A stretch of DNA of 64,000 nucleotides from contig OZ253580.1 of the NCBI GenBank assembly GCA_965263035.1, positions 1,760,001-1,824,000 on the forward strand, read 5' to 3'. Origin of the DNA: Acidobacteriota bacterium (GTDB lineage Bacteria; Acidobacteriota; UBA6911; RPQK01; JAJDTT01). The first letter of the stretch is position 1. Each line of letters begins with the position of its first letter. The translations under genes were made by a program, and so were the position numbers. A model generated the notes under the pieces. That model was not told the DNA's origin, did not search any database, and saw nothing but the letters and a program-made list of their open reading frames with translations. Shown piece after piece: positions 21,585-36,345 of this stretch.

Positions 21585-21675
21585 AGGAGCGGCGGCTTTC
21601 TTGCCGCCGATTGGGGGGTCTGGGGGGCTTGAAGCCCCCCTCCTCAGTCAGGCGACAAGAAAGTCGCCCCTCCGG
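21585..21675. repeat. REP/BIME-like palindromic cluster between convergent genes (possible bidirectional terminator)
   Basis: ggagcggcggctttcttgccgcc pairs in inverted orientation with ggcgacaagaaagtcgcccctcc; internal hairpin ggggggcttgaagcccccc. Confidence 0.6.
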
Positions 21676-22749
21676 TCATGCCGCGACGTCGGCAACGGCC
21701 TTGTTCAAGGCGGGCATCAGCTCCTTGGCGAACAGTTCCAGGTTGCGGATCCAGCTGGCCTTGTCGTCCCAGTCGAAGCCCATCAGGACCAGGGTGCCGA
21801 AGGGACCGCTCTCTTCCATGAGCTCCAGCAGGCGCCGGAGCACCTCGTCCACGTCCCCGGCGATGATCTGCTCTTTCAGCCAGAAATCCAGGTTGCAGTC
21901 GGCGTCCGGCATGTCTAGGTCGCGCTTCAGGATCCCCCGGTGCCCCAGCGAATTGTCCAGCAGGGAGGCGATGTACTCGTAGTTCCCGCCCACCGAGTTG
22001 TTGCGCGCCAGCTTCACGGCCTCCTCGGTGGTGTCGGCGAGGAAAATGGCGCGACAGACCTTCCAGTCGGCAGGATCGGCTTCCCGGCCCGCCTCGGCGG
22101 CGGCCCTGGCGTAGGTCGCCCAGTTGTCCGCCAAGACGTTTCCAGCGGCGAGTGCGGCCGAGAAGGGAGCGTACCCGCGTTGGCCCGCCAAGCTGAGGGA
22201 GCCCGAGTTGCGGCTGAGCCCCGGTATTGCGATCGGTGGATGCGGCTGTTGCAGGGGTTTGAATATGTATCCGATCCCCGTCGCTTCATCGACGTTCTCT
22301 TCGAGCGAGAACTGCCAGAATTTCCCATCGTGGTGGTAGGGCGGGTCCGACGCCCACAGTTTCAGGATGACGTCCAACGACTCCCGCGTCATCGCACCGC
22401 CATCCTTGGGATGCTGGCCGTAGAGCTCCATGTCGGTGCTGACGCTGTTGGGTCCGAAGCAGAGGTTGAGCCGTCCCTTGGAGAGGTGATCCAGAAACGC
22501 GAGCCGCGTGGCCACGTAGGCGGGATGGTGCAGATTGTGGCACACCGGCGCGGCCCCCAGACGAATGCGTTCGGTCACTCCGAGTACGCGGCCGATGAAC
22601 ACCTCGGGGACCACGATGGGCTCGAACCTCATGGTATGGTGCTCGCCGATCCAGAACTCGTCGAAACCGAGCTCCTCCGCCCGGACGGCCAGTTCGGCAT
22701 CCTCGTCGAAGCACTGAGCCAGCGGCTTGCTCGAAGGATGGTAGGGCAT
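21676..22749 (-). CDS. LLM class flavin-dependent oxidoreductase (N-terminus apparently frameshifted)
   Basis: AEELGFDEFWIGEHH, LDHLSKGR, KPLQQPHPP, LELFAKELMP. Confidence 0.9.
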   Translation of the reverse strand: MPYHPSSKPLAQCFDEDAELAVRAEELGFDEFWIGEHHTMRFEPIVVPEVFIGRVLGVTERIRLGAAPVCHNLHHPAYVATRLAFLDHLSKGRLNLCFGPNSVSTDMELYGQHPKDGGAMTRESLDVILKLWASDPPYHHDGKFWQFSLEENVDEATGIGYIFKPLQQPHPPIAIPGLSRNSGSLSLAGQRGYAPFSAALAAGNVLADNWATYARAAAEAGREADPADWKVCRAIFLADTTEEAVKLARNNSVGGNYEYIASLLDNSLGHRGILKRDLDMPDADCNLDFWLKEQIIAGDVDEVLRRLLELMEESGPFGTLVLMGFDWDDKASWIRNLELFAKELMPALNKAVADVAA

Positions 22750-22990
22750 GATGAAAATGCCGGTTTTTCAACCGGCGATGCAGAGAAACTGCTTGAATGA
22801 GGATAGATCTATCACGCTGGGGTGACAGGCGCAAGGGAAGAAGGAAGGGAGGGAGATGCGCCCCTCCCAAGGCGTGGCCTGGATCTTCACCCGGTCGTCG
22901 TATTTGGTTGGTCTGGAATTTCGGCGTGGTGTGGCGGCAGTTGGCAGTGTCCTAATTTGGTCCGGGACGCTGTTCTGTTAGCATCCGCAA

Positions 22991-23016
22991 TGGAGCCGGC
23001 GTCGGGAATCGAACCC
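22991..23016 (-). other. tRNA 3'-end fragment (att-like scar, possibly tRNA-Thr-like)
   Basis: Minus strand gggttcgattcccgacgccggctcca gives a T-arm plus acceptor 3' strand plus CCA. No D-arm or 5' half is recognisable. Confidence 0.6.
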
Positions 23017-23051
23017 TGGAGTGATCGGTTTCAAACAGCGACAAGGGCCAA

Positions 23052-23327
23052 ATGAAAATGGAGAGAAGACATACTGTATTGACCTGGTTCTGTTTGGGTC
23101 TCTTGGTCGCTCATATCCTGAACCACGATGAAAAGGGACCAGCTGACCACGCCAAAGATATTTTCAATTCTTGGATCGAGTGGATCTACTGGGGAGTGAC
23201 GGTCTTCTGGAATTGGATATGGATTAGGGGCGGATGGATCTGGGTATTGGTCATTGCGATATGGGTCACGGTAAAGAAGGTCAGACGAGCCAACGCCGAG
23301 CAGAGTGATGGGCCTTCGGAGAAATGA
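23052..23327 (+). CDS. Hypothetical Trp-rich membrane protein
   Basis: 91-aa ORF with 2-3 hydrophobic segments and lower GC than the flanks. Confidence 0.6.
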   Translation: MKMERRHTVLTWFCLGLLVAHILNHDEKGPADHAKDIFNSWIEWIYWGVTVFWNWIWIRGGWIWVLVIAIWVTVKKVRRANAEQSDGPSEK

Positions 23328-23621
23328 CCGCTCATGCTTCCCCAGGAAGTCAAGGCAGGAATGAAGTGCCGGGGACTGAGTTCTGTTTCAATCCCCGACA
23401 CTGGGGCTGCTAGGTTTGGGACCGCTGCCCGTGGAGGGCTTGCAGGAGAAGTTCCAAGTAGGGACCTCCGACTAGCACACCTGCCGTCTCAGGACCGGGC
23501 CATCTTCTCTAGCACGGGATGGCCGGGATCTCCAGCGTGCGCTCTTCCAAATGCCGGATTTGGAAGAATGATGTTGGCCGCCACCCGAAATATCACACCT
23601 GATTGTTAAACTTGACAAGCA

Positions 23622-24269
23622 ATGGAGGATCTAAGTTGCCTTTCGTTTGTCGCTTGGCCCATGGCTGCGGTCCTCTTTGGAGTGGCTTTCTTGTTGCTGT
23701 TCCGAAAACAGATCCGCCAGCTCCTTGGCCGAGCCAAGAGTTTCGGCAAGGAGGGCTTCCGTTTCGGCGAGGAAGGCGACCGTGCCTACAAGGACCCGCA
23801 ACCCTCGGCCAGAAGGCCTGACGCCCCCACCGAGTTCTATGACGAGTTCGAGAGTCCTCTGTTTCTTGAGGTAGAGTCTGACATTGAAAAAGAATTGCAG
23901 GATCGAGGAATCACTGATCCAATCTTCACTAGAAAATTCTTGTTGAAGACGCTGGCCAGAACGTTCATCTTTCGCCAGTTCGAGGCAGTTCATAGTGTCA
24001 TCTATGCAAGTCAGTTAAGATCGCTGATGTTCCTCAACATACAGCCCACACTGACGACTACGGCTGAACTCAAGTCCCGCTTCTACGACACCGCCGTCGT
24101 TAACTTCCCGATGACGTACAAGGACCGAGCGTTTGGCGAGTGGCTTGGTTACCTTCAGCTCCAAGCGCTGATTATTGGGAAGGAGGAGCGGATAAGTCTC
24201 TCTCTTCGGGGTCGAGAGTTCTTAAAATGGCGTGTGGATAATGGGTTTCCCGAGCCGCCGTTTGTCTAA
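23622..24269 (+). CDS. Hypothetical protein with N-terminal TM helix (cargo gene)
   Basis: 215-aa ORF with AWP...FLLLFRKQIR TM segment and a soluble, possibly winged-helix C-terminus; converges on the portal gene. Confidence 0.75.
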   Translation: MEDLSCLSFVAWPMAAVLFGVAFLLLFRKQIRQLLGRAKSFGKEGFRFGEEGDRAYKDPQPSARRPDAPTEFYDEFESPLFLEVESDIEKELQDRGITDPIFTRKFLLKTLARTFIFRQFEAVHSVIYASQLRSLMFLNIQPTLTTTAELKSRFYDTAVVNFPMTYKDRAFGEWLGYLQLQALIIGKEERISLSLRGREFLKWRVDNGFPEPPFV

Positions 24270-24294
24270 TAGCCCATAATCACTCTGAATCCCG

Positions 24295-25314
24295 TCATCT
24301 CAGACCCGCCAGCCGTTCGGCATCTTCCGCAGACCACCCCGCCGCCCGCAAAGTGGCAGCACCCCGGATGCGTCCGGGCAGGTTGTCCGCTTGCAAGGAT
24401 TCGGCCATGTTCCACTGAAACGGCGTTTCCAGGACTCGGGCGAACTCTTCCGCCCAGGTGGAGACCCAACCGGAGACGACACCCCGGATCCAGGTGGCCA
24501 GCGTGTCGCGCCGTGCAGTCGCTCCGGTGGCCGTGATCCCTACCAGTTGCGGAGGGAATCCAAGCGACTGCGCCACGGCTGCGCCCAGCTTCTCGTACAG
24601 TTGCAGGACAGGCCCAGGCACGTCTACACCCAGGCGAAGTAACGCGGGGGGTGTATTGCCTTGCATATTGTCTCCCAGGACAGAAGCGCCGCCACGCATT
24701 TTCGATAGCATCTTGGAGGTATGAGCGTACCAGTCCACTGCGCCGCCGCTCGCCCCTGCGACCCGTGCCAGTACCTTCCCAGTCGGTCCGGCAGTCTCTT
24801 CCCCAAACCGGAGTACAAGCCGGGCGAGTGCTACGCCGTCAGGTCCGGCCACGTCCAGCCAAGACCGCCCACGCCATGGCCGAGACGGGTCCGGGTGTAG
24901 CTTCAAGTGGGCGACACTCTCCGGCCCTAGTCCGTTGAGCGTGACGCTACGATCAGGCCCAGGGATTTCTACGTCATAGATCAGCGCATCCAAGCGACCT
25001 CTTAATGAGACGACGTGCGCCGGGTAGAGCATGGGCGATCCGTTCATGATGCGAACGACAAAGAAGGCCTGTCCATTCTGGACCAGCCGCGCAGCCGCCC
25101 AAGGAATCCATGGGCGGATCGTATCCGGTGGAGCACCAGCGGACAGGGCAGACGCCAGCCTTGCGGAACAGGCACTCACAACCGCCGGGACCCGTCCCCC
25201 GACCGATCCTTTATAGACACTCACCTGATTCTGCGGTAGCCATTCGGACAGGGCGTCCGAACGGGTCTGGACCTTCGGCTGGGTCTCCAGGCGTAGCAGC
25301 GTCAGACCAGCCAT
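24295..25314 (-). CDS. Phage portal protein, divergent HK97-like
   Basis: AVVSACSARLASALS, LVQNGQAF, VAHLK..P...PWRGRS, VAQSLGFPPQLVG; position in a head module. Confidence 0.75.
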   Translation of the reverse strand: MAGLTLLRLETQPKVQTRSDALSEWLPQNQVSVYKGSVGGRVPAVVSACSARLASALSAGAPPDTIRPWIPWAAARLVQNGQAFFVVRIMNGSPMLYPAHVVSLRGRLDALIYDVEIPGPDRSVTLNGLGPESVAHLKLHPDPSRPWRGRSWLDVAGPDGVALARLVLRFGEETAGPTGKVLARVAGASGGAVDWYAHTSKMLSKMRGGASVLGDNMQGNTPPALLRLGVDVPGPVLQLYEKLGAAVAQSLGFPPQLVGITATGATARRDTLATWIRGVVSGWVSTWAEEFARVLETPFQWNMAESLQADNLPGRIRGAATLRAAGWSAEDAERLAGLR

Positions 25315-25805
25315 TTTCTCGGCCTCCGGCGCGGTTCCGGGTCTGTTTCTATGAGGTGGCGGATCTCTTCCACTTCCGACCGTGGATAGGCTTGTCTGTC
25401 CACCAAAGCCAGCCCGCGAAGGGTGCCGACCGAGACAACCAGTACCTTCCCTTGCGCCCGAGTCTGACGCCGGACGAACTCGATACTGACGCCTTCGAGG
25501 ATACCGCCACGGATCAAGACGGCCGCGTCTCTCCCGTCGCCCGTGTCCGGGAGCGTCAGGGAGAAGCGGAGGGCCGTGGGCGTGTCCGTCAGGACCAGGC
25601 CGCCATCGGGAAACCGCCCTAACAAGCGGTCCCGGCGGTGGCCCAGATTCATGAAAACCGGACCCGCCAGCTCGCCAAATGCGCCCGGTTGGATGCGTTC
25701 ACGGGTCCCCAGGCGATCCAGGATCAGGGATGGCTGCCCGTACACGATGGCGACCCCGGAGACGATGCCGGGACCGTCTCCGTTGTCTTGTCTGATTTCC
25801 AGCAT
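25302..25805 (-). CDS. HK97-family prohead protease
   Basis: GVAIVYG, ERIQPGAF, H.RDRLLGR, LPDT.DGRD, GVSIEF, LALVDRQAYP. Confidence 0.92.
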   Translation of the reverse strand: MLEIRQDNGDGPGIVSGVAIVYGQPSLILDRLGTRERIQPGAFGELAGPVFMNLGHRRDRLLGRFPDGGLVLTDTPTALRFSLTLPDTGDGRDAAVLIRGGILEGVSIEFVRRQTRAQGKVLVVSVGTLRGLALVDRQAYPRSEVEEIRHLIETDPEPRRRPRKWLV

Positions 25806-25817
25806 GGCGTGAACGCC

Positions 25818-27062
25818 TTACGGGAGCGACAACTTGCGCCGGGAATACGCCTTGGCGTCGATCAGCTTGAAGTTGGTCAACAAGATAAGATCGACGTAAA
25901 CCTCGCCCTTCGCCGACCCCGTGTAGGTATCGAGAATCGAAGTCAGTCCGTCTTCCCAAACCGGAGACACGGCGGCGGTATGGTCCGCTTTGCCGCACCA
26001 CGTCAACGAGTCTTGCTTGTTAGATGCCGGGTCGGGAATGTGCGCCGACGTGAAAATACTCGACCCCACGTCAGATATCAGGCCGGACAGGTCCGCCGCC
26101 AGTTGGGGCAGCCCGATACTCGTTAGTGTCCCGACCAGGACACGATAGGACTGGACACCCAGTGCGATCTTTACCATTTTCAAGTCGCTGGCATATTTGC
26201 CGTCAATCACACTCGCCATGCCTTGCAGGACGGTCCCGACAGAGATGTCGTTCAAGTCCGCGCCCGCCGTCAGGGACGGCAGCAGACCGTTGATAACATC
26301 GTTTCCGGTCCCGAAGGTATTGAGGGACATTTGGTCCAGACTTTCTTCCAGAGCTGCGCGAGCTTCACGCCTCAGAGCGTCTTCAAACATGGCGACCATT
26401 GCGGCGTCTTCGCGCCGCCAGCCGACACGGACCTGGACCCGCTTCGGGGTCGCAGTCTTCGGCGTCAGGGTCCAGGCGGAGGCGTCCACGGTTGCGCCCT
26501 TCGCTGCCGAGGCCGGGGTGACGCCGGAGGACACGTGCTGCCATGCGGCTGTCCCACGTGGGACCATTGGAAACTGACATCCCATGCGTCTCGCGGACAG
26601 TCTCGCGGTCACTCGGTCAATAATGCTCTGGACATTGACGGCGGTTCCGGTGGCCGGGGCTTCGCTGTAGGCATCGGCGCGAATCTGGACCCGCTCTGCA
26701 TGGTCCAGGAGTCCGACCCAAGGGATAGAATCTCCGCCGCCGGTTTCCTGCCGATATTCCAGACTCTCGCCCGTGGGCCGACCAAACAGGAAGCCGGACA
26801 GGTTCACGCCGTCTTCCAGGCGGGCGAACTCCAATTGATCGGCGGATAGGTCGCGGTTCTGGGTTTCCTTCTCCCGTTCCTTCGGGTCCGGCGCAGTTTC
26901 GACGGCGATCCGCCAGCGGCTTTCTACATCTTCAAGTTCGGCCCGCTTCTGCGTTAGGGTCGTAGTCTGATCTTCCGTCAGTGTCCCTTCGGCGAATAGT
27001 AATGTGTTTATTTCGGTCCGTAGAGTGGACTTGCGGACTTCAAGCTGCTGAATCTGAGTCAA
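25818..27062 (-). CDS. Phage major capsid protein (HK97 fold with N-terminal coiled-coil delta domain)
   Basis: 414 aa with a helical N-terminal scaffold region, TPKRV and LNTFGTGN..NGLL; RBS gggagg before TTG; adjacent to the protease. Confidence 0.8.
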   Translation of the reverse strand: MTQIQQLEVRKSTLRTEINTLLFAEGTLTEDQTTTLTQKRAELEDVESRWRIAVETAPDPKEREKETQNRDLSADQLEFARLEDGVNLSGFLFGRPTGESLEYRQETGGGDSIPWVGLLDHAERVQIRADAYSEAPATGTAVNVQSIIDRVTARLSARRMGCQFPMVPRGTAAWQHVSSGVTPASAAKGATVDASAWTLTPKTATPKRVQVRVGWRREDAAMVAMFEDALRREARAALEESLDQMSLNTFGTGNDVINGLLPSLTAGADLNDISVGTVLQGMASVIDGKYASDLKMVKIALGVQSYRVLVGTLTSIGLPQLAADLSGLISDVGSSIFTSAHIPDPASNKQDSLTWCGKADHTAAVSPVWEDGLTSILDTYTGSAKGEVYVDLILLTNFKLIDAKAYSRRKLSLP

Positions 27063-27107
27063 TGTCTTATCCTCCCTGGTCGATTCATTTTGTTGTACAC
27101 TTATCCA

Positions 27108-27398
27108 TTATCCTGTATGTGTGTACAATAAATCAAACACAGCTTGTCCCCATGCCGTCCGCTCCGGGCGGTCCATGGCCTCATGGAGCATTTTATGGTC
27201 CCGATAACAGACACTTTGCAGGTTATCCACGTCCCACGGGTCGCCACCTTGCCGGATCGGTTCAACGTGGTGGACAGTGGTTGCAAGGCGTCCGCACCCG
27301 CAGATCGGGGACAGGGACAATTTCCAGGAACGGAGGGATTTCCAACGCCTGGTATTGTAGACGCGCCTATGAGCCTCTTTCCTCGTCATGCGATCCAC
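27108..27398 (-). CDS. HNH endonuclease (terminase-associated gp74-like)
   Basis: YNTRRWKSLR, C.CG, VHHVEP..GG.PWD.DNLQSVC..DH..LH. Confidence 0.92.
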   Translation of the reverse strand: MDRMTRKEAHRRVYNTRRWKSLRSWKLSLSPICGCGRLATTVHHVEPIRQGGDPWDVDNLQSVCYRDHKMLHEAMDRPERTAWGQAVFDLLYTHTG

Positions 27399-28849
27399 TC
27401 TGAGGCCGGGGGGGTGTAGTACAGTTGCGGTGGCGTTTGCCTGGACCTCCTGGACCCTTCCCCTATCGCCAGAACCGCAGCTATCGCAGCATCATTATTT
27501 CGTTGCGCCCCTTCCCTGGATCGTTTCGTGATCTTCGGATTTCCCGCCGGGTCCCGCACTAACAGGGATGCCGCCAGAGCGATCCGCATAAGTAGAGATG
27601 GTCTGGACCTTATTCTCTTCTCTAACAGCGTCCGGGTGAACTCCCTAACATCGTTTGAACTGTCACGGAATCCAAGTCCCCTCCACTCCACAAGTAGGCC
27701 AAGAGACGCCAGCGCGTCTTCCAGTTCCGGTTTACGGTAGCGGTCCGCCAGTACCACTTCCGGCGTCCCGAATCGTTCTATGGCGTCGGACAGGACCAGG
27801 GCCGGGGGTGTCGTTCGGGTCCCTGGAATCATCACCAACTCGCCCCTTCGGACCATGGACGAATAGACCCCTATATTTCCGTCTTTCTCTTCCCGTCTGG
27901 CAAGCGTGGGAATGTCTCCGAAGTATCCGGCCACTTCCAGCCGTCCCGTTTGATACCAATAGGCGGCAGCACCCGTCATGCTGCGACCTCCGCCCAAATC
28001 CAAGCCCAGGACCATGGGACCGGATCGTTCCGGGAGCGTGTCGGTTTCGGCCATGCGAGTCCATTCGTGCGACGTACATAAAACATCTTCAACCAACTCG
28101 GAATTACCCATATTCAGCCGCAGATTCCTGAAAGACGCCATAGCAGCGGCCGATTTCGCGGCGTCTTCGGATTCCTCTTTGATGGCAGATTCCAGGGCCT
28201 CAAATCCGGGTAGACCCAACGATGGATTAGCAGACCGCCATGTTTTCGGGTCCAATGGATCGGAGTCCCGTTCGGCGTGCCAGATCAAACCGGAAGATTT
28301 CAACAGGTCTTCAAACCAGTGGCCTGCGCCGTCACTTGGCCTGGTCCCGGTGATGATCAATTTAGATCCGGGAGTCTTCCCGAGTCCGGTCCGCAAGGCG
28401 TTAAAAACCCTTTGTCCGCGAGTATTTGGAAAGCTGGACGGTTCGTCTATGATGGCGCACTTGAATCGTTTTCCTGTCAGTGAGTGCGCCGACCCTGCTA
28501 CGGCGCACAATTTGACATTCCATGGGAATTCGATTTGTTTTAATTGCGGATAATCTCGGATTTTTACGCCTATTTCCTTCCAGTCCGGGACCATTCGGCA
28601 GTAGGCGTCCACGGCGTCTCTCCAACTGATTCCAGCTTGTCCCAAAGTCGGACCAGCAATGAGCACGTCATATCCGGGAGCGTGTCCGGGTCCGGCTGAA
28701 AAATAGACCGCAAGTCGTGCGGCTTCAACACTTTTTCCGTTCGACCTCCCCATGGAGTAGGCGACTACGGAGCGGCCATTCGGGTCCAGGATTCGAGCCT
28801 GGACCTGGAGACCCCAGGGGGTGTCAGGGTACGGAAATTGTGAAATCAT
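27386..28849 (-). CDS. Terminase large subunit
   Basis: Walker A GRSNGKS, Walker B AIIDEP, ITGT coupling motif, WRSANPSLG, nuclease GLDLG and NDAAIA. Confidence 0.92.
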   Translation of the reverse strand: MISQFPYPDTPWGLQVQARILDPNGRSVVAYSMGRSNGKSVEAARLAVYFSAGPGHAPGYDVLIAGPTLGQAGISWRDAVDAYCRMVPDWKEIGVKIRDYPQLKQIEFPWNVKLCAVAGSAHSLTGKRFKCAIIDEPSSFPNTRGQRVFNALRTGLGKTPGSKLIITGTRPSDGAGHWFEDLLKSSGLIWHAERDSDPLDPKTWRSANPSLGLPGFEALESAIKEESEDAAKSAAAMASFRNLRLNMGNSELVEDVLCTSHEWTRMAETDTLPERSGPMVLGLDLGGGRSMTGAAAYWYQTGRLEVAGYFGDIPTLARREEKDGNIGVYSSMVRRGELVMIPGTRTTPPALVLSDAIERFGTPEVVLADRYRKPELEDALASLGLLVEWRGLGFRDSSNDVREFTRTLLEKRIRSRPSLLMRIALAASLLVRDPAGNPKITKRSREGAQRNNDAAIAAVLAIGEGSRRSRQTPPQLYYTPPASEWIA

Positions 28850-28865
28850 CTATGTGTGCTTCCTA

Positions 28866-28871
28866 ATTATA
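28866..28871 (-). promoter_or_regulatory. Consensus -10 box upstream of terL (candidate packaging-operon promoter)
   Basis: TATAAT on the minus strand 16 nt before the terL ATG, in an AT-rich intergenic region; no clear -35. Confidence 0.45.
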
Positions 28872-29103
28872 TGCACGTATTCTTATCAGTGTATTCCTAT
28901 AATTCCATAAACCCTGACATATATTGAGACCTGAGGTGGAAACCCGGTTTCACGGATTCGGGCCGGGGGGTAGGGAACCCTTTTTATGAACATGTTAGTG
29001 CACATGTTCGCGCCTGATACCGTGATAATCTGTGCCTTAGTGAATCTTTGGACCTGATCTATTGCACTGTCATATAGTTGTTTAGTGGACACTGCATTAG
29101 TTA

Positions 29104-29439
29104 CTAACCTATCCTGGTCTGTCCCAACCTTCGGATCAGCGTGCCCCGGCTTGTCTTCGGGCGCTTCAACTCTCGATCGACGGCTTTTCGTAGAACCTCG
29201 ACACTCAGGTCGAATGCCCCGCAAATCCAGACGACCGTTCCCACGTCACCCCGCTCCGAGGCAAGCCATTCCAGGGCGTCCAGTTGCGCTTCCCGCTGTA
29301 TACCGTGATCGAGCGCTGGCCCGCAGCCCAGGCAGTCCGACAACGAGACCGTCAACACTCGCAGCCAAAGCCGCCTCACAGAGTCCAGGCGCGGGGTGTA
29401 TTCCGGTACATCCGCCACTATTGCCGGCAGTCTTCTCAT
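29104..29439 (-). CDS. Small phage-type hypothetical protein
   Basis: RRLWLRVL...ALEWL...WICGAFDL..EVLR helical pattern resembling small phage proteins; TATACT lies just upstream. Confidence 0.6.
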   Translation of the reverse strand: MRRLPAIVADVPEYTPRLDSVRRLWLRVLTVSLSDCLGCGPALDHGIQREAQLDALEWLASERGDVGTVVWICGAFDLSVEVLRKAVDRELKRPKTSRGTLIRRLGQTRIG

Positions 29440-29585
29440 GAAGCCAGTATACGATAAATTGGGTGTTTCGTTTTCACGGAAGGGACAAGCGGCAAGGTGG
29501 GGACGATGGGTCCATGGATACTGCCCTTGTATGGCACCCTGACCGCATAACGCGGGTGGACACGTATCCATGGACCCCGAAACGC

Positions 29586-29825
29586 TTAGAGGGCGTGTGG
29601 CGGCTTTATGGGCCGGTTTCTATTTCTCTCGATTTCCTGGTACAGTTTTTCATCGTCATCGCCGTCGCTGATCTTCTCCATGGCGTGAGCCATATCCCAC
29701 GCCTGTTTCAGCCATTCTGGCTTCAGCCAATTTGGATCCAGGGCGCCTCGGGGTGCCTTGCCCAATCCCTCAGCGACAATCCTCCCTGACACGACCTGAC
29801 CAAAGAAATAGTCGATTCTTTTCAT
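29586..29825 (-). CDS. Small hypothetical protein
   Basis: ORF MKRIDYFF... preceded by an aggatggag purine-rich RBS. Confidence 0.55.
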   Translation of the reverse strand: MKRIDYFFGQVVSGRIVAEGLGKAPRGALDPNWLKPEWLKQAWDMAHAMEKISDGDDDEKLYQEIERNRNRPIKPPHAL

Positions 29826-29994
29826 TCTCCATCCTCCTTCGAGGTTTGCGTTGCCCACAATGGCAACGCAACGAGTTAATGATTTGGACTAACCACGTCG
29901 GTTTGTCTTCTTACAAACCTATAATACTCCGCACTCACAAAACGTCGGTGGCGGATTTTTCACTTATCAATTTTTTAAGATATGGGGGATTCCT

Positions 29995-30129
29995 GGTACA
30001 AGCGAGTACAAGCGAACCTCACACCAAGAACCTAAGAGTTAATTTTTTCTCTTCTCTTCTCTTCCTCTTAGGAGGAATCTTACTCTTAGGAGGTTCTTTG
30101 GTGTAATGTTCGCTTGTACAAGTTGTACC
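29995..30129. repeat. Long imperfect inverted repeat (ori-like hairpin/cruciform)
   Basis: Left arm ggtacaagcgagtacaagcgaacctcacaccaagaacctaagag. The reverse complement of the right arm is ggtacaacttgtacaagcgaacattacaccaaagaacctcctaagag. The loop is CTCTT-rich. Confidence 0.8.
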
Positions 30130-30830
30130 GAGTGGAGGTGCCATTAGTCCGAATCCTCACCCGTGACAGGATCTCGACCCATGACCTCGTACTTCCTCCA
30201 GTTCTGGCGAAACAGTTGGAAGATCTTGCTAGTGGGTGAGAGACCGCTTGTGTTCTTGGTAGTGATCCAGTGCTGAGACTCCACCCACTCCAAATACTCC
30301 CGGCACAAAGCCAACTGACCCGTGCCCAGAAGCCGAAGTAACTTCCACCCCATTCTCTTTTGCCGTTCTCCTACCCACTCGGCCAGGTCTAGATAGGCGT
30401 CTTTTGCCCCTTCTCCAAATAGTCTCTGTGCCAGTTGGAGGTCATTTTGCAGACCCTCAATCATTGATGGTGTTGGATAGGAGAGGAAGTCCTCAATCCG
30501 GGCATCCAACGTTGATGTGGGTCTTGATGTGGATGTGTGTAAAACAGGCTTCGCCATGGGCTTCGGTGCCTTGGTGATCTTGGTGTTCCTGTGTTCCTGC
30601 AAAATCTGAGACACCCGCTGTTGACTCACACCCCATTTCCCGGCGCATTGAACTTGCGTCAGTCCACTTTCGTAGTCGTTGATGATGTGGGTCCATCTAG
30701 GTCGCGCGCGACCTCTGCGACGACGCCCGCCTCTTAACCCGTCCCTTCTCCCTTTCCAGCTTTTCAGACCCTCTTCTGAGTTGGTGAACCGGCTTCGGGC
30801 CTCCTCACACTCGTCAACGATCTCCTCTAG

Positions 30831-32595
30831 CCTGCATTTCTCATCAGTAGAACAATAAACGGAAGTTGAACCGTCGTCTGGGTGATTCTTTATCCATACG
30901 AGTTCAAGAGGCAGTTTTCGTGCTCGAACGTGCCGACCAACGGCCAGATGCAGCGCTTCTCCAGAGCCTTTTGACGCCCATCCTGCGCTTCTGAGCGACG
31001 ACTCTCGACCCGGTGCCCACTCCGGGGCGCAGTCCATCCTGGGGACTCCCAAGTCGCCATCGTCCAAAGAGTTCTTTCCATCCGTTGCTAACAGCGAAGC
31101 GGGAGGGCTTGCACTTGCGTCAGAGCCGTCCTCAACAGCGCCGCATACGGATAGCTCTCGGAAAAGGACAACCAGACCTTGCGGCTGGTGATCCGGACCT
31201 GTGCCCCGATCTTCAGCAATCTCACCCGCAGGGTCCAGCTCTGCGCCCGCGCCAGCTTCGTCCCCGCCAGCCCCACCCGTCGCAACGTCTCCATCATCAC
31301 GTAGGCGAATGCCGAGAAATACAACCGCAGTTGATTCCCCGCCAGCTTCCGGGTCGACGTGCGGTCCGCAAACAGACCCATCTGCTGTTCCTTTATCCGA
31401 TTCTCCATGTCTCCCCGCGCGCAGTAGACCTCCTCGTACAATCTTCGCCCATCGCATTCCTGGACCGGGACCGAAGTCACGATGAATCGCGGGTTCTTTC
31501 CCCGGGGCAGGTGCTCCACCTTCGCCACCACCCGGCGCTCGCACGACCAACTCTTGTGCGTCTGATAGCGCAGTTCCTGGAACTGCCTCACGGCCTTCCC
31601 GATCGCCCGCTGCAACTGCCGGACGGTCTCCATCCGGGTCGCGATCCTCCGCTTCAGCCGATCGTTCTGCGCCAACCCCAGGACGTAATCGATCCCTTCC
31701 TTCTCGCACCAGACCATCAACTCGTCGTTGGAGAAGGCACTGTCCCCTCGAACCGTGATCCGCACCTGGGGCCACGCTTCACGCAGCCGCCTCACGATTG
31801 GTTCCAACTCCGCCACCACCCCGTGGGCCGCGCCTCGATCCGCCGTGCGCAGCCGCGCACGCAACAGGTGTTCCCCACAGAAGACGTACAGCGGCAGGTA
31901 GCAGTAGCGTTTGTAATAGCCGTGGAAGAACCGTCCCTCCTGCTTCCCATGCAGCGGATCGTCCGTGGCGTCTACATCCAGGATCACCTCCTCCGGGGGC
32001 TCCGGATGCGCTTCCACAAACACCTCCAGCAGCAGCTCGTCCATCCCCGCCGGGTCGGCCACGATCTTCTTGTACGCGCCCTCCGGTCCCTCCAACGGAG
32101 TCCGCTCCAGTCGGTTCAGGGTGCTCTTGCCTGCCAGCGGCTTGCCTCGATCCGACTCCACGCGCCGGAACTCCCCCGTCAGATCATCTCGATCACACAA
32201 CAGCGCCAAGAGCCGGTCCCGGCACAACTCGTCGTGGTCGTTGAGGTCCTCGTAGCCCAGGCACAGCCCCAGCACCCGCTGTTTGATCAACGCCTCCACC
32301 GGGTGTTCGACTCGATCCGAGTCTCGATAGTCGGTGAAGCATTCGCTCAGACGACCCAGAATCCGGGTCCGCTGCTCCACTTCGCGCAGGAGCACGCCAC
32401 CGGCGTCGGAGGTGATCTCGCCGCCGTCGAACCGGCCCACGACATCCCGTCCGTCCAGGCCCTGAAATCTGAGCTTTATTCTGGTACACTCTGCGGTCAT
32501 AAGGTCGCGTCCCTTCTGCTTTGTAAGTTATTGATTACACAACACTTATAGCAGAAAACGCGGCCTTTATCAATCTTTCTGATGAGATATCCGGG
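30831..32595 (-). mobile_element. IS1380-family insertion sequence
   Basis: TIRs cctgcatttctcatcag / ctgatgagatatccggg; CTAG direct repeats at 30827-30830 and 32596-32599. Confidence 0.92.
31088..32500 (-). CDS. IS1380-family transposase
   Basis: FDGGEITSDAG, GYEDLNDH, LDVDATDDPLHG.QEG.FFHGYY, RGDSAF, YCARGDMENRIKE. Confidence 0.97.
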   Translation of the reverse strand: MTAECTRIKLRFQGLDGRDVVGRFDGGEITSDAGGVLLREVEQRTRILGRLSECFTDYRDSDRVEHPVEALIKQRVLGLCLGYEDLNDHDELCRDRLLALLCDRDDLTGEFRRVESDRGKPLAGKSTLNRLERTPLEGPEGAYKKIVADPAGMDELLLEVFVEAHPEPPEEVILDVDATDDPLHGKQEGRFFHGYYKRYCYLPLYVFCGEHLLRARLRTADRGAAHGVVAELEPIVRRLREAWPQVRITVRGDSAFSNDELMVWCEKEGIDYVLGLAQNDRLKRRIATRMETVRQLQRAIGKAVRQFQELRYQTHKSWSCERRVVAKVEHLPRGKNPRFIVTSVPVQECDGRRLYEEVYCARGDMENRIKEQQMGLFADRTSTRKLAGNQLRLYFSAFAYVMMETLRRVGLAGTKLARAQSWTLRVRLLKIGAQVRITSRKVWLSFSESYPYAALLRTALTQVQALPLRC

Positions 32596-32926
32596 CTAGT
32601 TGGTCCGGCGTGAAAGGATCTCCAAGCTCGGTGCTAAATCGCTCAACGCCCATTCTCACGAATCCATTTTGGTATGTGGCGCTCTCGGGGGGACCCATCA
32701 ACTTGTACATGCTCTTGAACATCCTGACTCGTGGAGGAGTGGCCGGTCCACCTAACAGCGGTGCCCGCTCGACGATCCGCCTTTCCTTTTCTTCCGTGCT
32801 CAGGTTAGCTCGTAGCGGCTTTCGTTTCTCTGTAGTATTGTAGCGGTGAGATGTCATGTTCTTCTCTCCCTTTGTTTTCGCCCCTGGTCCATGGTCTCTA
32901 AACACTGGATCGGGGGTGTATCTGTT

Positions 32927-33226
32927 TTACTTGCCAGCCGGGAGCAGCGGGAAGGTGAACCCGATCTTGCGTAGCAGGCGCAATTTCTTAACGGCCTTTT
33001 CGGGGAAGTGCGGACCCACGTCTCCCGCCTCGTGACTCAGCACGAATTCAGACAAGAGGGACCGAAAGGCGTCACTTATGGACAGTCTGCCATGAAACCG
33101 TCTGATCCACTCCAAAGCCTCCATTTCCTCCGGGGACAGTAGAACTCCGATATGGCGGTCCCGCGTCGGTAGGTCCATACGGTGGACCTCACCCTTTGGA
33201 CTCATGATAAACAGTTGTTTAGACAT
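32927..33226 (-). CDS. Ribbon-helix-helix (CopG-like) regulator
   Basis: RHIGVLLSPEEMEALEWIRRFHGRLSISDAFRSLL beta-alpha-alpha pattern; RBS gggagg. Confidence 0.6.
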   Translation of the reverse strand: MSKQLFIMSPKGEVHRMDLPTRDRHIGVLLSPEEMEALEWIRRFHGRLSISDAFRSLLSEFVLSHEAGDVGPHFPEKAVKKLRLLRKIGFTFPLLPAGK

Positions 33227-33271
33227 TGTGTTTCCTCCCTTTCAAAGAGAATGTATTTAATATTCGATTCA

Positions 33272-33300
33272 ATACTACAGCACAGATAGATACAAAGCAA
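33272..33300 (-). promoter_or_regulatory. Sigma70-type promoter for the RHH-rep operon
   Basis: Minus strand TTGCTT-N17-TAGTAT. Confidence 0.6.
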
Positions 33301-33330
33301 CTAGGAGGGTGTTGTCGAGAAGGGTGGACA

Positions 33331-33367
33331 CACCTCTTCCCGTGGTAAGTGGCCACGGGAAGAGGTG
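33331..33367. terminator. Perfect 15-bp stem hairpin downstream of the recombinase
   Basis: cacctcttcccgtgg-N7-ccacgggaagaggtg; no clear U-tract. Confidence 0.5.
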
Positions 33368-33480
33368 GAGTTTCACCGGCGACTATAACAGGAAGTCAGC
33401 CACCGGCCCGCCCTGGATGTCGTGTTACCAGCGGCAGCTATGTTTAGTACCCAATCAGTCTAGCATAGACGCATAGGCAC

Positions 33481-34458
33481 TTACCATTCCATCATCTTCG
33501 CCACCCGTGACTGTGTGGCCTTCTGATTCCTCAGATAGACGCTGACCATGGCAGGAGTCTTCCAGCGTCCGGCGGTTTGGATCTCACTATCCCTCATTCC
33601 CATTGAGGCCAAGTGCTGGGCGAATCCACGGCGTAAGCCATGGGAACTCGTAGTCACCCCAGCGACGCTGGCCCGCTTCGGGACCAGCCTACCAACGTGT
33701 AAAGTTGTCATCCTTCGGTCGGTCACAACCGGGTTAATATCAAACCCGCATTTTTGGATAGCGGGAAACAGCACACCCGAGACGATGCCGGCCATTCCGA
33801 CCCACTTCATCACCATGGAGACGACTTTTTGGGGAACTGGTAAAACGGTCCCAGCCCCATACGCATCTGTTTTTGATCTTCTGATTGTCAGAAGCCCGGA
33901 CCCTTCCTTTTGAACTTCCAAGTCCTCAACATCCAGATGGGTCACTTCCGACACCCTCAATCCGGAAACGAACATGAGGGAGATGAGTGAAGCATCTCTG
34001 GCACCCCACAAGCTGCCTCTCGCGGTTGCCGTCCGACAAATCTTCTGTACCTGTTCCATGGTGACGGGCGCGGCACTTCCTCGCCCTCTTCCTGCTCCCT
34101 TCCGCCGTGCCATGCTCAGCATTGCCTCCGTCTCCATTCCATAGGGGGAAGGGTGCCTGAGTGCCTTCGCGCGAAACTTCGCCGCTGACACGGTGATACA
34201 GATACTGGGAGGGGCCAAGCCCCGTTCGTGCTCGGCGGTGATGAAATCCGCGAGCAATTCATCGGTGAGAGTACGTCCGCACAACCACGCATCCAGTTTC
34301 TTATTTGCTCTGCGGTAGACGCTTGCGGTGCCGTCCGATTTCCCCAAATAGGCACGGGTCAATTTTGGATCCTCTTTGATACTCCCGCTTCTCAGTTCAT
34401 TCAACTGCTCCGGTGAGAATAAAGACCCTCTACGACGAAAAGCTACAACGTTGCTCAT
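33481..34458 (-). CDS. Tyrosine recombinase/integrase, Cre-like
   Basis: Catalytic residues: GLRVSE (R), RSKTD (K), SHGLRRG (HxxR), GRW, MVSVY (Y); RBS ggagg. Confidence 0.93.
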   Translation of the reverse strand: MSNVVAFRRRGSLFSPEQLNELRSGSIKEDPKLTRAYLGKSDGTASVYRRANKKLDAWLCGRTLTDELLADFITAEHERGLAPPSICITVSAAKFRAKALRHPSPYGMETEAMLSMARRKGAGRGRGSAAPVTMEQVQKICRTATARGSLWGARDASLISLMFVSGLRVSEVTHLDVEDLEVQKEGSGLLTIRRSKTDAYGAGTVLPVPQKVVSMVMKWVGMAGIVSGVLFPAIQKCGFDINPVVTDRRMTTLHVGRLVPKRASVAGVTTSSHGLRRGFAQHLASMGMRDSEIQTAGRWKTPAMVSVYLRNQKATQSRVAKMMEW

Positions 34459-34671
34459 GCTGGATTCCTCCAAAGATATGATACGTCCCGTTAACCCAAA
34501 TGCCGGTTTTGATGGGTCGTGCGGTGGCTGTCGTGTCACCTGTCATGCGCCGCTGTCTCCCTTCGCCAACGGTTTCTCGGCGGGATGGATTTGTGTTTGA
34601 AGGATGTTGCAGCCGGATTTTGGAGTCAACCTCGATACGAGTTGCCGCATTCGACGAACGTTATGCCCCCG

Positions 34672-36345
34672 TTACACCCGTGTGGGCAGCGTCCGGTATT
34701 CGATGCTCAGCTCCAGGCTGTGGAGGATCATTTCGATCAGGACCTGAGGGTTCCGCTTCTTGAGGGTGGCTTCCAACCGGTTCGCTCCCTGCCGGATCCA
34801 GTCTCCGTGCGTGAGATCGTAGGACATGATGTAGTTGCCCTGGTACTCGATGGGTCCCGGCCCGACGCGGTTCATGGGAATTTCCAGACTTGGGTTCTCA
34901 GGCAACGGACGCCCGTTCCACTTCAGCTCCAGCACGTCTTCCGACGTCAGACCCACCACCGTCAGACTCAACTTGATCTCCTGGAGCATGCCTCTTCGAC
35001 GCGCCATGTCCAGGTCGTCCGCCACCAGGACCTCCACCTTTTTGGCCTTCCCCTCGGCCAACGCCTCCGGCAGCTGATGCACGAAGGCCTGGAAGACGTC
35101 GCTGCTGCGAGGATACTTCTTGAGGCAGTCGAAACAGCCGACCTCGGTATAGAGCTTGTCCTTGTGCTCCAGCGTCTTGGGATCTCCCAGTTCCTGGAAC
35201 ACCACCTCGGCTTCCTTCAGGTTGTGGCCGATATGGTGGTGGAAGTTGAACATGTAGATCCCGTCGACCCCCTGCCGCCAGGCGTTGGCGGCTCCGGCCC
35301 GGAGTGTCGCCGCGGGCGGACGCCGATGGTAGCCCGGCCCCACTTGTTCGGAAGTGCAGGCATAGACCCGGCATGAGGTCCCCTGAGCCAGAGCGACGAA
35401 CCTATCGAAGGGAATTCCCGTCGCCGTATCCCAATGGACTCCGGGCGATACGTAGTCGACCAATCCCTCCTGGATCCAGGTTTTCACATCCAGTCCGGTC
35501 TGACGGCACTTTCCCAGAGTTGCCGGCACCCGGACCCCGAATCCCAGGGGCCGGCCCCGATCGGCTCCGATGCGGTTGAACAAGGCCCTGGCTTCACGCA
35601 GATACCCGGTCAGGATCGGCCTCCCCTTCTCGATGTCGGGGAAATAGTGCCCGGGCTCGCGCAGGAAATCCCACTCGAAGCCGTCGGCGTCATAGCGGGT
35701 GCACGCGTCCTCTACCAGTTGCAGACGGTGCGCCCGGACCTCCGGTATTGCGAAGTTGAGGCCGACGCATTTCTCGGCGTAGACGCTTTCAGGACTATGG
35801 ACGCCCGAACCACAGTTGTCTCCCAACTCGTATTCTCGATGGGCAACCCGAAAGTGGCTCGGCCATTGAAAGCGGGGACCGTGTAGATCATTGAAGCGCA
35901 TGCCGATCCAGTACTGCAGGCCGGCTTCGTGAGCCAGCTCCAGAGACAGCTGCCAGGGATCGATGCCCTGGTCCAGAAGCCCTTGGATACAAGTCTGCTG
36001 TTTCCACTCGCTGACGTGAAGAAAGCTGTCCCGATCGATGCCCCGGGCATCGGCCACCCGGGTGGGAAACAGGGGAACCGCGTCGCCGAAGCCGAACATG
36101 TGGCAGACGACGGCGCCGATCTTGGTCCCGATGAACCGCCCCACGGCCTCGTAGACGAAATCCTCGGGCGCCCAGGGAGGGGAGGGATAGAAGAGGAAGC
36201 TGCCGTCGTTGTTGTAGAACAAAGGCGGCAGCGAAAGGCGCTCCGTCTTGGCCTCAAGAGGCCGGGCCGACGCGACTCCGGCCCCCGCCAAGGTCAGCGC
36301 GCCCACGTTTCGCTGAAACTCCCTCCGGTTCAGCTTCTTCGTCAT
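34672..36345 (-). CDS. Tat-exported glycoside hydrolase-like TIM-barrel protein (GHL10/DUF187-like)
   Basis: RREFQ Tat signal; YNNDG, MRFND.H, LNFAIPEVR, YDADGFEWDFLR, GVDGIYMFN. Confidence 0.75.
   Translation of the reverse strand: MTKKLNRREFQRNVGALTLAGAGVASARPLEAKTERLSLPPLFYNNDGSFLFYPSPPWAPEDFVYEAVGRFIGTKIGAVVCHMFGFGDAVPLFPTRVADARGIDRDSFLHVSEWKQQTCIQGLLDQGIDPWQLSLELAHEAGLQYWIGMRFNDLHGPRFQWPSHFRVAHREYELGDNCGSGVHSPESVYAEKCVGLNFAIPEVRAHRLQLVEDACTRYDADGFEWDFLREPGHYFPDIEKGRPILTGYLREARALFNRIGADRGRPLGFGVRVPATLGKCRQTGLDVKTWIQEGLVDYVSPGVHWDTATGIPFDRFVALAQGTSCRVYACTSEQVGPGYHRRPPAATLRAGAANAWRQGVDGIYMFNFHHHIGHNLKEAEVVFQELGDPKTLEHKDKLYTEVGCFDCLKKYPRSSDVFQAFVHQLPEALAEGKAKKVEVLVADDLDMARRRGMLQEIKLSLTVVGLTSEDVLELKWNGRPLPENPSLEIPMNRVGPGPIEYQGNYIMSYDLTHGDWIRQGANRLEATLKKRNPQVLIEMILHSLELSIEYRTLPTRV

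Follow-up and report, generated by a model that had tools for sequence, protein, structure and literature searches.

A tail-less head-gene island of about 10 kb in an Acidobacteriota genome, a probable capsid-forming phage satellite

What kind of genetic element carries the genes for building and filling a phage head, yet no recognisable gene for a tail? The question is raised by a locus on contig OZ253580.1 of a soil-type Acidobacteriota bacterium (assembly GCA_965263035.1), here called element A. The window analysed is a stretch of 64,000 nucleotides (nt; positions 1,760,001 to 1,824,000 of the forward strand), and coordinates without a further label refer to it. Element A is a mobile island with defined ends; it carries genes for making and filling a phage head, and no gene for a tail could be recognised in it. 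With moderate confidence, we take it to be an integrated capsid-forming phage satellite, a member of an acidobacterial lineage that resembles the phage-inducible chromosomal islands of the capsid-forming kind (cf-PICIs) and has so far been seen mainly in Acidobacteriota. An earlier reading of the letters alone, made without database searches (the sequence-only reading), had proposed an intact, mobile, tail-less head element of a distinct lineage, as opposed to a decaying prophage. The proposal is borne out by attachment (att) sites, by empty sites in related genomes, by at least seven islands in the host genome and by circular relatives.

Element A occupies positions 22755-34510, a length of 11.74 kb, or 9.97 kb once a 1,773-bp insertion sequence (IS) is subtracted. 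Its ends are marked by an exact 13-nt direct repeat, AAATGCCGGTTTT, which forms the attL core at 22755-22767 and the attR core at 34498-34510. By our own estimate, a 13-nt repeat within 15 kb is about what chance would supply; the repeat is convincing because empty sites are found in relatives, as follows. The flanks of element A lie side by side in all four same-genus genomes searched, and base-by-base alignment to three of them gives ACATGCCGTAGTT between identical flanks. Metagenome contigs jump from 22756 to 34500, skipping 11,743 bases, in two of four runs, and in both of these runs the flanks are several-fold deeper than element A itself. Element A is thus polymorphic in natural populations. 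The insertion point is the 5′ end of a gene for a luciferase-like monooxygenase. The sequence-only reading had put the extent at 24295-34500, about 8.4 kb without the IS; judged by the att repeats and the empty sites, the true element is larger and reaches 1.5 kb further left. Beside the luciferase-like gene, at about 21585-21647, a stretch of some 30-60 nt has dozens of matches of 85-100% identity in all four same-genus genomes. It looks like a dispersed short repeat of the repetitive extragenic palindrome or miniature inverted-repeat transposable element type. An Rfam scan of positions 22500-34800 found no family.

Read 5′ to 3′ along the minus strand, the genes run integrase, o99, an open reading frame (ORF) split by the IS, small ORFs, TerL, HNH, capsid, protease and portal. 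The gene list and the order TerL-HNH-capsid-protease-portal, all on one strand, had been given by the sequence-only reading, and family matches, paralogs and a fold search with the portal establish both as real. The large terminase TerL (487 aa, 27386-28849) matches phrog_9 (E 7e-50) and TerL_nuclease (E 4e-6). Residues K39, D135/E136, D284, D369 and D453 are invariant across the TerL family alignment; we take K39 to be the Walker A lysine, D135/E136 the Walker B pair and D284/D369/D453 the acidic residues of the nuclease. Between TerL and the capsid gene lies an HNH endonuclease of 96 aa (27108-27398; Pfam HNH E 7.5e-8, phrog_144 E 3e-14). A further gene with direct family matches encodes an HK97-type prohead serine protease of 167 aa (25302-25805; Peptidase_S78 E 1.8e-13, phrog_80 head maturation protease E 9e-18), which also aligns to TIGR01543 at E 3.8e-10, under the cutoff of that model.

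The 414-aa capsid protein and the 339-aa portal have no direct match in Pfam, PHROG or NCBIfam. Their identity was therefore approached through paralogs, fold search and profiles. The product of 25818-27062 is assigned as an HK97-fold major capsid protein. The paralogs E08 (BLASTP E 6e-30) and B09 (E 7e-17) match it, and both lie above the Pfam Phage_capsid cutoff of 24.2 bits (33.5 and 37.7 bits, respectively), as do the capsids of L056 and L052, two relatives from IMG/VR. A profile of the capsid family aligns weakly to HK022 gp5 (E 9e-4). In an AlphaFold2 model made from a 10-row alignment, helices are predicted at residues 3-93 with a predicted local distance difference test score (pLDDT) of 62-87; the remainder is unreliable, and the mean pLDDT is 39.7. 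The helical N-terminal domain resembles the built-in scaffold (delta) domain of HK97 gp5. The portal (24295-25314) was recognised by a Foldseek search of the PDB with its AlphaFold2 model (predicted template modelling score, pTM, 0.51). The search returned 32 matches at E<=0.001, and every match listed is a portal or neck protein of a phage or a gene transfer agent (GTA), among them the portals of RcGTA (6tba, the best, E 3e-6), GBSV1, HK97 (8fql) and G20c. The paralogs B12 and F10 exceed the Pfam Phage_portal cutoff, and the portal family profile aligns weakly to HK022 gp3 (E 1.3e-4 over 249 columns). Searches of PDB sequences with phmmer and with profiles gave nothing meaningful for the capsid, the portal or sm, a small gene described below. 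The sizes of 414 and 339 aa had raised the suspicion that a standard portal-protease-capsid order had been misread; the fold matches of the portal and the paralogs of both proteins rule this out. Almost every homolog is full length: nine of 11 capsid homologs have 413-420 aa and 10 of 11 portal homologs 337-342 aa, at 26-99% identity.

The remainder of the gene set is marked by what could not be recognised. No tail, tape measure, lysis or holin family was found at 22755-34510 with Pfam, PHROG and NCBIfam. The earlier statement that TerS, connector or adaptor, tail, lysis and primase-helicase genes are not recognisable holds in the sense that element A has no family match to any of them; for TerS, there is a candidate. 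Three small minus-strand ORFs, o90, o155 and o112, are listed between the transposase of the IS and TerL, and o155 (29104-29571), without a family match, is directly upstream of TerL. It is the only accessory ORF of element A with relatives elsewhere, being 33% identical to the ORFs directly upstream of TerL in island D of the host and in L013, an element of another genome. In the atlas, the clusters closest to it (score 0.91) consist of phage-associated proteins without a name. We regard o155 as a candidate TerS by position. BLAST clustering of the ORFs upstream of TerL across the family yields small lineage-specific groups and no universal TerS.

Is element A alone of its kind? The closed host genome (6.2 Mb, 97% complete) holds six further islands with its core order, found by TBLASTN and all-against-all BLASTP. 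The core in the seven islands is int + TerL + (HNH) + capsid + (protease) + portal, with the small ORF sm before the portal in several. In islands C, D, F and G, too, an HNH ORF lies between TerL and the capsid gene, and integrase paralogs of 27-43% identity are found beside every other island. Intact islands are 23-53% identical in protein sequence; island C is degraded. Island D (L009, G000 5098127-5108942) interrupts a sodium:solute symporter (SSF) gene, with profile positions 223-406 and 1-172 on either side of it, and island F abuts another SSF gene. The integrases of the islands appear to target protein-coding genes, not tRNAs. Scans of 97 island ORFs with Pfam and of 49 with PHROGs brought up no tail family.

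Some further observations concern these islands. Next to another integrase paralog, G000 5647395-5648846 holds a fragmentary portal gene with a 162-aa open frame (Phage_portal E 1.9e-6); it may be an eighth, degraded island. The TerL of island E (L010 7763-9865) has 700 aa, with an N-terminal extension of about 200 aa. Two genes from the integrase of island E, at L010 293-1435, is an Antibiotic_NAT gene (aminoglycoside 3-N-acetyltransferase family, E 3e-38), which belongs to the chromosome and, as far as can be told, lies outside the island.

The host genome was also searched for a resident helper phage. There is no match in it to PF10145 (tape measure), PF04984 (sheath), PF04865 (baseplate J), PF03354 (TerL_ATPase) or PF03237 (Terminase_6N), and capsid and portal matches are confined to the islands plus the one portal fragment.

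The family extends to other Acidobacteriota. A scan of genome contigs with the first capsid alignment found one locus only. The capsid-profile survey, which scored four candidates per genome, detected the family in six of the 401 genomes sampled from the phylum, and the host is one of the six. Eight loci from the five other genomes were compared; the capsid is upstream of the portal in seven, and the eighth, L032, consists of fragments only. One of them, L026, is a circular permutation, int-capsid-protease-portal-TerL-HNH. The sister of element A is L013, in the Acidobacteriota metagenome-assembled genome OZ246889.1. It is 9.75 kb long, is bounded by a 14-nt repeat and carries at its cargo end (L013 4835-5518) a DUF4145 protein homologous to the anti-phage defence protein PD-T7-4 (E 8e-22).

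Relatives are also found as free circles. Scans of IMG/VR and of JGI metagenomes with the first capsid alignment gave no match, and two IMG/VR scans with TerL alignments gave 16 contigs of 5.9-13.6 kb; the upper figure is the largest size in the set. The capsid precedes the portal in 14 of the 16. The exceptions are L047, which ends before a portal, and L054 (6,286 bp), a near-perfect palindrome in which a capsid-HNH-TerL fragment is followed by its mirror image, probably an assembly artefact. Six contigs carry terminal direct repeats of 55, 99 or 127 nt, read as assembler overlaps, which makes them circular genomes of 9.3-13.6 kb; the largest (13.6 kb) holds a Tn3 transposase. In five of the circular genomes, 58 ORFs were called; Pfam was run on 48 of them, the other 10 being probable wrong frames, and PHROGs on 25. 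Neither a named tail gene nor an integrase was found. Primase/helicase or Rep genes were present: D5_N/DUF5906, VapE-like, AAA_25 and Replicase+PriCT_1.

The position just upstream of the portal deserves attention. Here L050 encodes a protein for completion of the head (Phage_HCP in Pfam, E 5e-9; head closure Hc1 in PHROG, E 1e-6), which points to a head built for a tail. Most members of the family have sm at this position. The sm hidden Markov model is without a match in element A, L013, islands C and D, L031, L047, L051 and L055, and L028 is marginal (E 0.003). No known adaptor matched sm, no similarity to HK022 gp6 or gp7 was found, and the atlas look-up gave scores <0.9 and no consistent family. 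In three circular genomes, a stretch of about 2.2-2.4 kb separates protease and portal (L050 3484-5778, L057 3181-5343 and the corresponding interval of L062). Gene calling makes this stretch an ORF of 720-764 aa in L050 and L057, with an sm-like domain at its start and no family match, and L057 has several sm-like stretches. L057 also shows a weak HK97-gp10-like match (E 0.003), below the Pfam cutoff.

The same minimal gene set recurs in divergent islands and in circular genomes of about 10 kb; therefore, these elements form a family and are not remnants. The search for syntenic elements that had been recommended was thus productive in the host, in other Acidobacteriota and in IMG/VR. The family is large. 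With E<=1e-3 as the limit, the capsid profile matches 5,969 of the 50%-identity clusters among 1.84 billion representatives; with E<=1e-30, it matches 1,702. Of the 150 matches listed, almost all are full length. It is also far from known phages. The sequence-only reading had allowed that the closest homologs might lie in full prophages, with element A a deletion remnant of one; the nearest TerLs of cultured phages are about 25% identical, and they belong to ordinary tailed phages with the order TerL-portal-protease-capsid-connectors-tail. A capsid paralog searched against phages gave essentially no match. A tree of TerL sequences, which has two phage TerLs as its only outgroups and is indicative only, puts 20 of the 22 members of the family on one side of a split with 97/95 support, apart from the phages. 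The TerLs of island E and L027 group on the side of the phages. Their placement suggests that the packaging gene has been swapped in the island E lineage.

The remaining features of element A concern integration, regulation and cargo. The integrase (33481-34539, minus strand) is a tyrosine recombinase (Phage_integrase E 2.9e-18; phrog_1 E 1e-20). The mechanical start of its ORF, 34539, lies outside attR, and the true start is probably internal. It had been called Cre-like; the evidence goes no further than a tyrosine recombinase of the Phage_integrase family. Between the integrase and o99 is a perfect hairpin with 15-nt arms (33331-33345 and 33353-33367, 100% complementary) and a 7-nt loop. 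The small gene o99 (32927-33226, minus strand) is a candidate regulator of the ribbon-helix-helix (RHH) type. Its RHH-like stretch can be seen by eye only, and no family match goes with it; the L013 ORF at this position has weak NikA-like/DUF6290 RHH matches (E 8e-5 and 1e-3).

The IS (30827-32599, minus strand) encodes a transposase at 31088-32500 (DDE_Tnp_1_4 E 2.6e-148) and has 13 other full-length copies in the host genome, at 97.4-100% identity. It is a later insertion and not part of the satellite proper. Copies of it also adjoin island C (G000 22690-24462) and island E (G000 5145349-5147125), and the islands may be preferred or tolerated targets of this IS. In element A, it splits a minus-strand ORF. 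The N part (32600-32905, about 102-108 codons) runs into the IS, and the mechanically called ORF o111 (32570-32905) extends across the border. The C part (30147-30824, open for 226 codons) ends at the other border and has weak helix-turn-helix (HTH) or regulator matches in PHROG (E 8e-4 to 8e-3). Neither part matches Pfam, and the N part is without a PHROG match as well. The description of this ORF as Rep-like, and of a plasmid-like RHH/Rep module, is therefore not supported: no family match backs it, and the split ORF gives weak HTH matches only (E about 1e-3). Downstream of the split gene is an imperfect inverted repeat with 22-nt arms (30006-30027 and 30098-30119, 91% complementary), the hairpin of the sequence-only reading, and after it o90 (29586-29858, minus strand), without family match or paralog.

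The left arm holds two or three plus-strand ORFs at 23052-24269. The first, p91a (23052-23327), encodes a small hydrophobic protein with a charged C-terminus, a transmembrane (TM)-like segment at residues 56-74 and a weak DUF4870 match (E 0.007). The second, p91b (23334-23609), is a doubtful ORF with atypical codon-position GC (0.61/0.62/0.49) and no family match. The third, p215 (23622-24269), encodes 215 aa with an N-terminal TM helix (TM-like residues 3-28) and a soluble domain; it has no match in Pfam, PHROG or NCBIfam and no paralog in the host genome. We class p91a and p215 as accessory cargo. Together they make a two-gene membrane cassette, the layout of which loosely recalls holin/endolysin pairs, with nothing in support. 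PADLOC found no defence system in element A, and cargo genes are not conserved between element A, L013 and the other islands.

How might such an element spread? HK97-like phages use an HNH-dependent, cos-type mode of packaging. For element A, the following course is proposed. After excision and replication, the capsid protein, the protease and the portal would build small procapsids. TerL and HNH, probably with o155 as TerS, would cut the DNA to unit length, about 10 kb, and fill the heads with it. A co-infecting helper phage would then supply tails for the filled heads, and probably lysis, unless the heads dock to free tails after release, in the manner of cf-PICIs. The cargo end would carry accessory genes, such as those for the membrane proteins of element A and for the PD-T7-4 homolog of L013. 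The copy studied here may be impaired in regulation or replication by the IS in the HTH gene; its head genes are intact.

Several points weigh against a satellite of this kind. Neither a helper phage nor induction, particles or packaged DNA have been observed, and no circular junction of element A is among the joints listed from assembled contigs. The five Pfam families scanned in the host leave some types of tail uncovered. For the capsid fold, the evidence consists of the Pfam matches of paralogs and one weak profile match, the AlphaFold2 model having failed; TerS is a candidate by position only; and no pri-rep gene was found in element A. At the head-tail interface, no adaptor or connector was matched in element A with Pfam, PHROG or NCBIfam and none is recognisable in L013, sm is missing from both of them and kept upstream of the portal by most relatives, and both L050 and L057 have an unnamed ORF, of about 720-760 aa, in which structural functions could be concealed. 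Connectors are needed by cf-PICIs for tail binding (10.1101/2025.02.11.637232).

The bare interface could instead be taken at face value. Element A would then be a vehicle independent of any helper, the DNA-filled heads of which are never tailed, get out of the cell with the help of the element's membrane proteins or through lysis of the host and enter new cells by some other route. The lack of adaptor, connector and sm in element A and L013 agrees with this, as do the seven islands in a host without a match to the five tail and terminase families and the adjacent membrane-protein ORFs p91a and p215. However, we know of no DNA delivery by tail-less HK97-type heads, and both sm beside the portal in relatives and the head-closure protein of L050 point to tail docking. 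The tail-less capsids of cf-PICIs are, moreover, non-infective until bound to a tail (10.1101/2025.02.11.637232), and we consider the helper-independent vehicle unlikely. Less likely still is a very small autonomous phage with tail and lysis genes hidden among the unnamed ORFs. Several ORFs do lack family matches, there is room for such genes in the 720-764-aa ORFs between protease and portal of L050 and L057, and the HK97-gp10-like match of L057, weak as it is, would fit. But when the parts for integration, regulation, head building and packaging are discounted together with the split-gene region, element A is left with about 1.5 kb of cargo, which we infer to be too little for any known tail; this cargo differs between element A, L013 and the other islands, and the island ORFs scanned include no tail family.

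Two further explanations are very unlikely. A decayed prophage that has kept its head module alone would account for phage-derived genes without a tail, for the IS within element A and for the clearly degraded island C. It is already contradicted by the exact att repeats and empty sites, by the recurrence of the minimal set in divergent islands and circular genomes of 9-10 kb, by capsid and portal homologs that are nearly all full length and by the distance to the nearest phage TerL. The chance is equally slight that the locus is a GTA-like head cluster domesticated to serve the host. The best fold match of the portal is that of RcGTA, and the head-gene cluster is small. RcGTA, however, is a single host-fixed cluster with tail genes and without integrase or att sites. 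Here, every copy in the host comes with an integrase and att sites of its own, natural populations carry element A in part only, one genome holds seven divergent copies, circular relatives are episomal with their own replication genes, and no tail genes were found. A capsid-forming satellite remains the explanation that we prefer.

A more far-reaching proposal can be made, which is speculative and more probably wrong than right: the lineage of element A, L013 and their metagenomic relatives would be the most reduced capsid-forming satellites known, made up of an integrase, a regulator, perhaps TerS, TerL, HNH, capsid, protease and portal, with nothing at the head-tail interface, and the wider capsid family would be a large, unrecognised class of head-only elements of about 10 kb, integrative or plasmid-like, across environmental bacteria. 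If so, a bare portal must dock the whole neck and tail of the helper, or particles must move DNA without a tail, and up to seven such elements can live in one genome without a recognisable tailed prophage.

The findings have consequences beyond this locus. They place a cf-PICI-like strategy in Acidobacteriota, a phylum dominant in soils for which few viruses are known, and one genome holds seven copies. The family spans two lifestyles, one chromosomal with an integrase, the other circular with primase/helicase or Rep genes in place of the integrase. With a capsid family of thousands of clusters, virome contigs of about 10 kb with head genes and no tail may often be satellites and not phage fragments. 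The lineage of element A, without a recognisable connector, offers a natural test of the fewest genes that a DNA-filled HK97-type head requires, and of the way in which it acquires a tail.

How does element A compare with known systems? Capsid-forming satellites have been reported from Proteobacteria and Firmicutes (PMC10085698), with related cases, MulchRoom and MiniFlayer, in Actinomycetota (PMC10690885). The cf-PICIs arose at least three times, and within the proteobacterial clade the proteins of the packaging module are 50-90% similar to those of EcCIEDL933 (10.1101/2022.09.08.507074). They release tail-less capsids that later bind free tails, and adaptor and connector set the tail specificity (10.1101/2025.02.11.637232). 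A literature search for satellites of Acidobacteriota and for tail-less metagenome elements with capsid, terminase and portal did not turn up a description of the present family.

The HK97/HK022-like temperate siphoviruses share with element A the same families of TerL (about 25% identical), HNH, portal, S78 protease and capsid. These phages are about 40 kb long and have the order terS-terL-portal-protease-capsid-connectors-tail, whereas element A is about 10 kb long and tail-less, with TerL-HNH-capsid-protease-portal. The "twilight-zone" mini-genomes with an HK97-fold capsid, bounded by direct terminal repeats and <11.6 kb long, are of the size class to which five of the six circular relatives belong; in the available description, they are encapsulin-like and are without terminase, portal and connector, unlike the present family with its TerL, HNH, protease and portal (PMC13669383). 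The Streptomyces satellites MulchRoom and MiniFlayer, compared by description, also encode terminase subunits, portal, major capsid protein and HNH and depend on a helper, and MulchRoom has a tyrosine integrase as well. They differ in having 20-26 genes, a separate scaffold protein, a head-to-tail adaptor, Actinomycetota hosts and virulent BE-cluster helper phages (PMC10690885).

The closest parallel, judged by published description, is to the cf-PICIs (about 10-15 kb, prototype EcCIEDL933). Common to both are an integrase, TerL and HNH, together with an HK97-type capsid, protease and portal of their own, and neither has a module for tails or lysis. Both carry accessory or defence cargo at one end, and primase/helicase genes are found in the relatives of element A. 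The cfPICI model of SatelliteFinder counts 11 core components, including pri-rep, TerS, adaptor and connector, and forbids tails and holins (PMC10085698). Element A has the integrase, TerL with HNH, the capsid, the prohead protease and the portal, and no tail or holin match. An AlpA/MerR/Stl-type regulator, pri-rep and adaptor/connector are without a match, the regulator by Pfam, PHROG and NCBIfam searches of its ORFs. With several of the 11 components lacking, element A is not the standard cf-PICI that had been named as the alternative. The inverted capsid-protease-portal order, which the sequence-only reading took to be new, is already stated for proteobacterial cf-PICIs, the order of which is capsid-protease-portal-connectors, then hnh-terS-terL (10.1101/2022.09.08.507074). 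In element A, by contrast, HNH follows TerL and does not precede terS-terL, and TerL-HNH precedes the capsid; where the family has a small gene in connector position, it lies between protease and portal, whereas cf-PICI connectors come after the portal. To summarize, the lineage of element A differs from the cf-PICIs in its phylum (Acidobacteriota), in the position of HNH, in copy number (seven in one genome), in its small size (9.97 kb) and in the absence from element A of a recognisable AlpA-type regulator, pri-rep, TerS, adaptor and connector. Although element A departs from several features of the cfPICI model, its proposed strategy is the same as that of the cf-PICIs.

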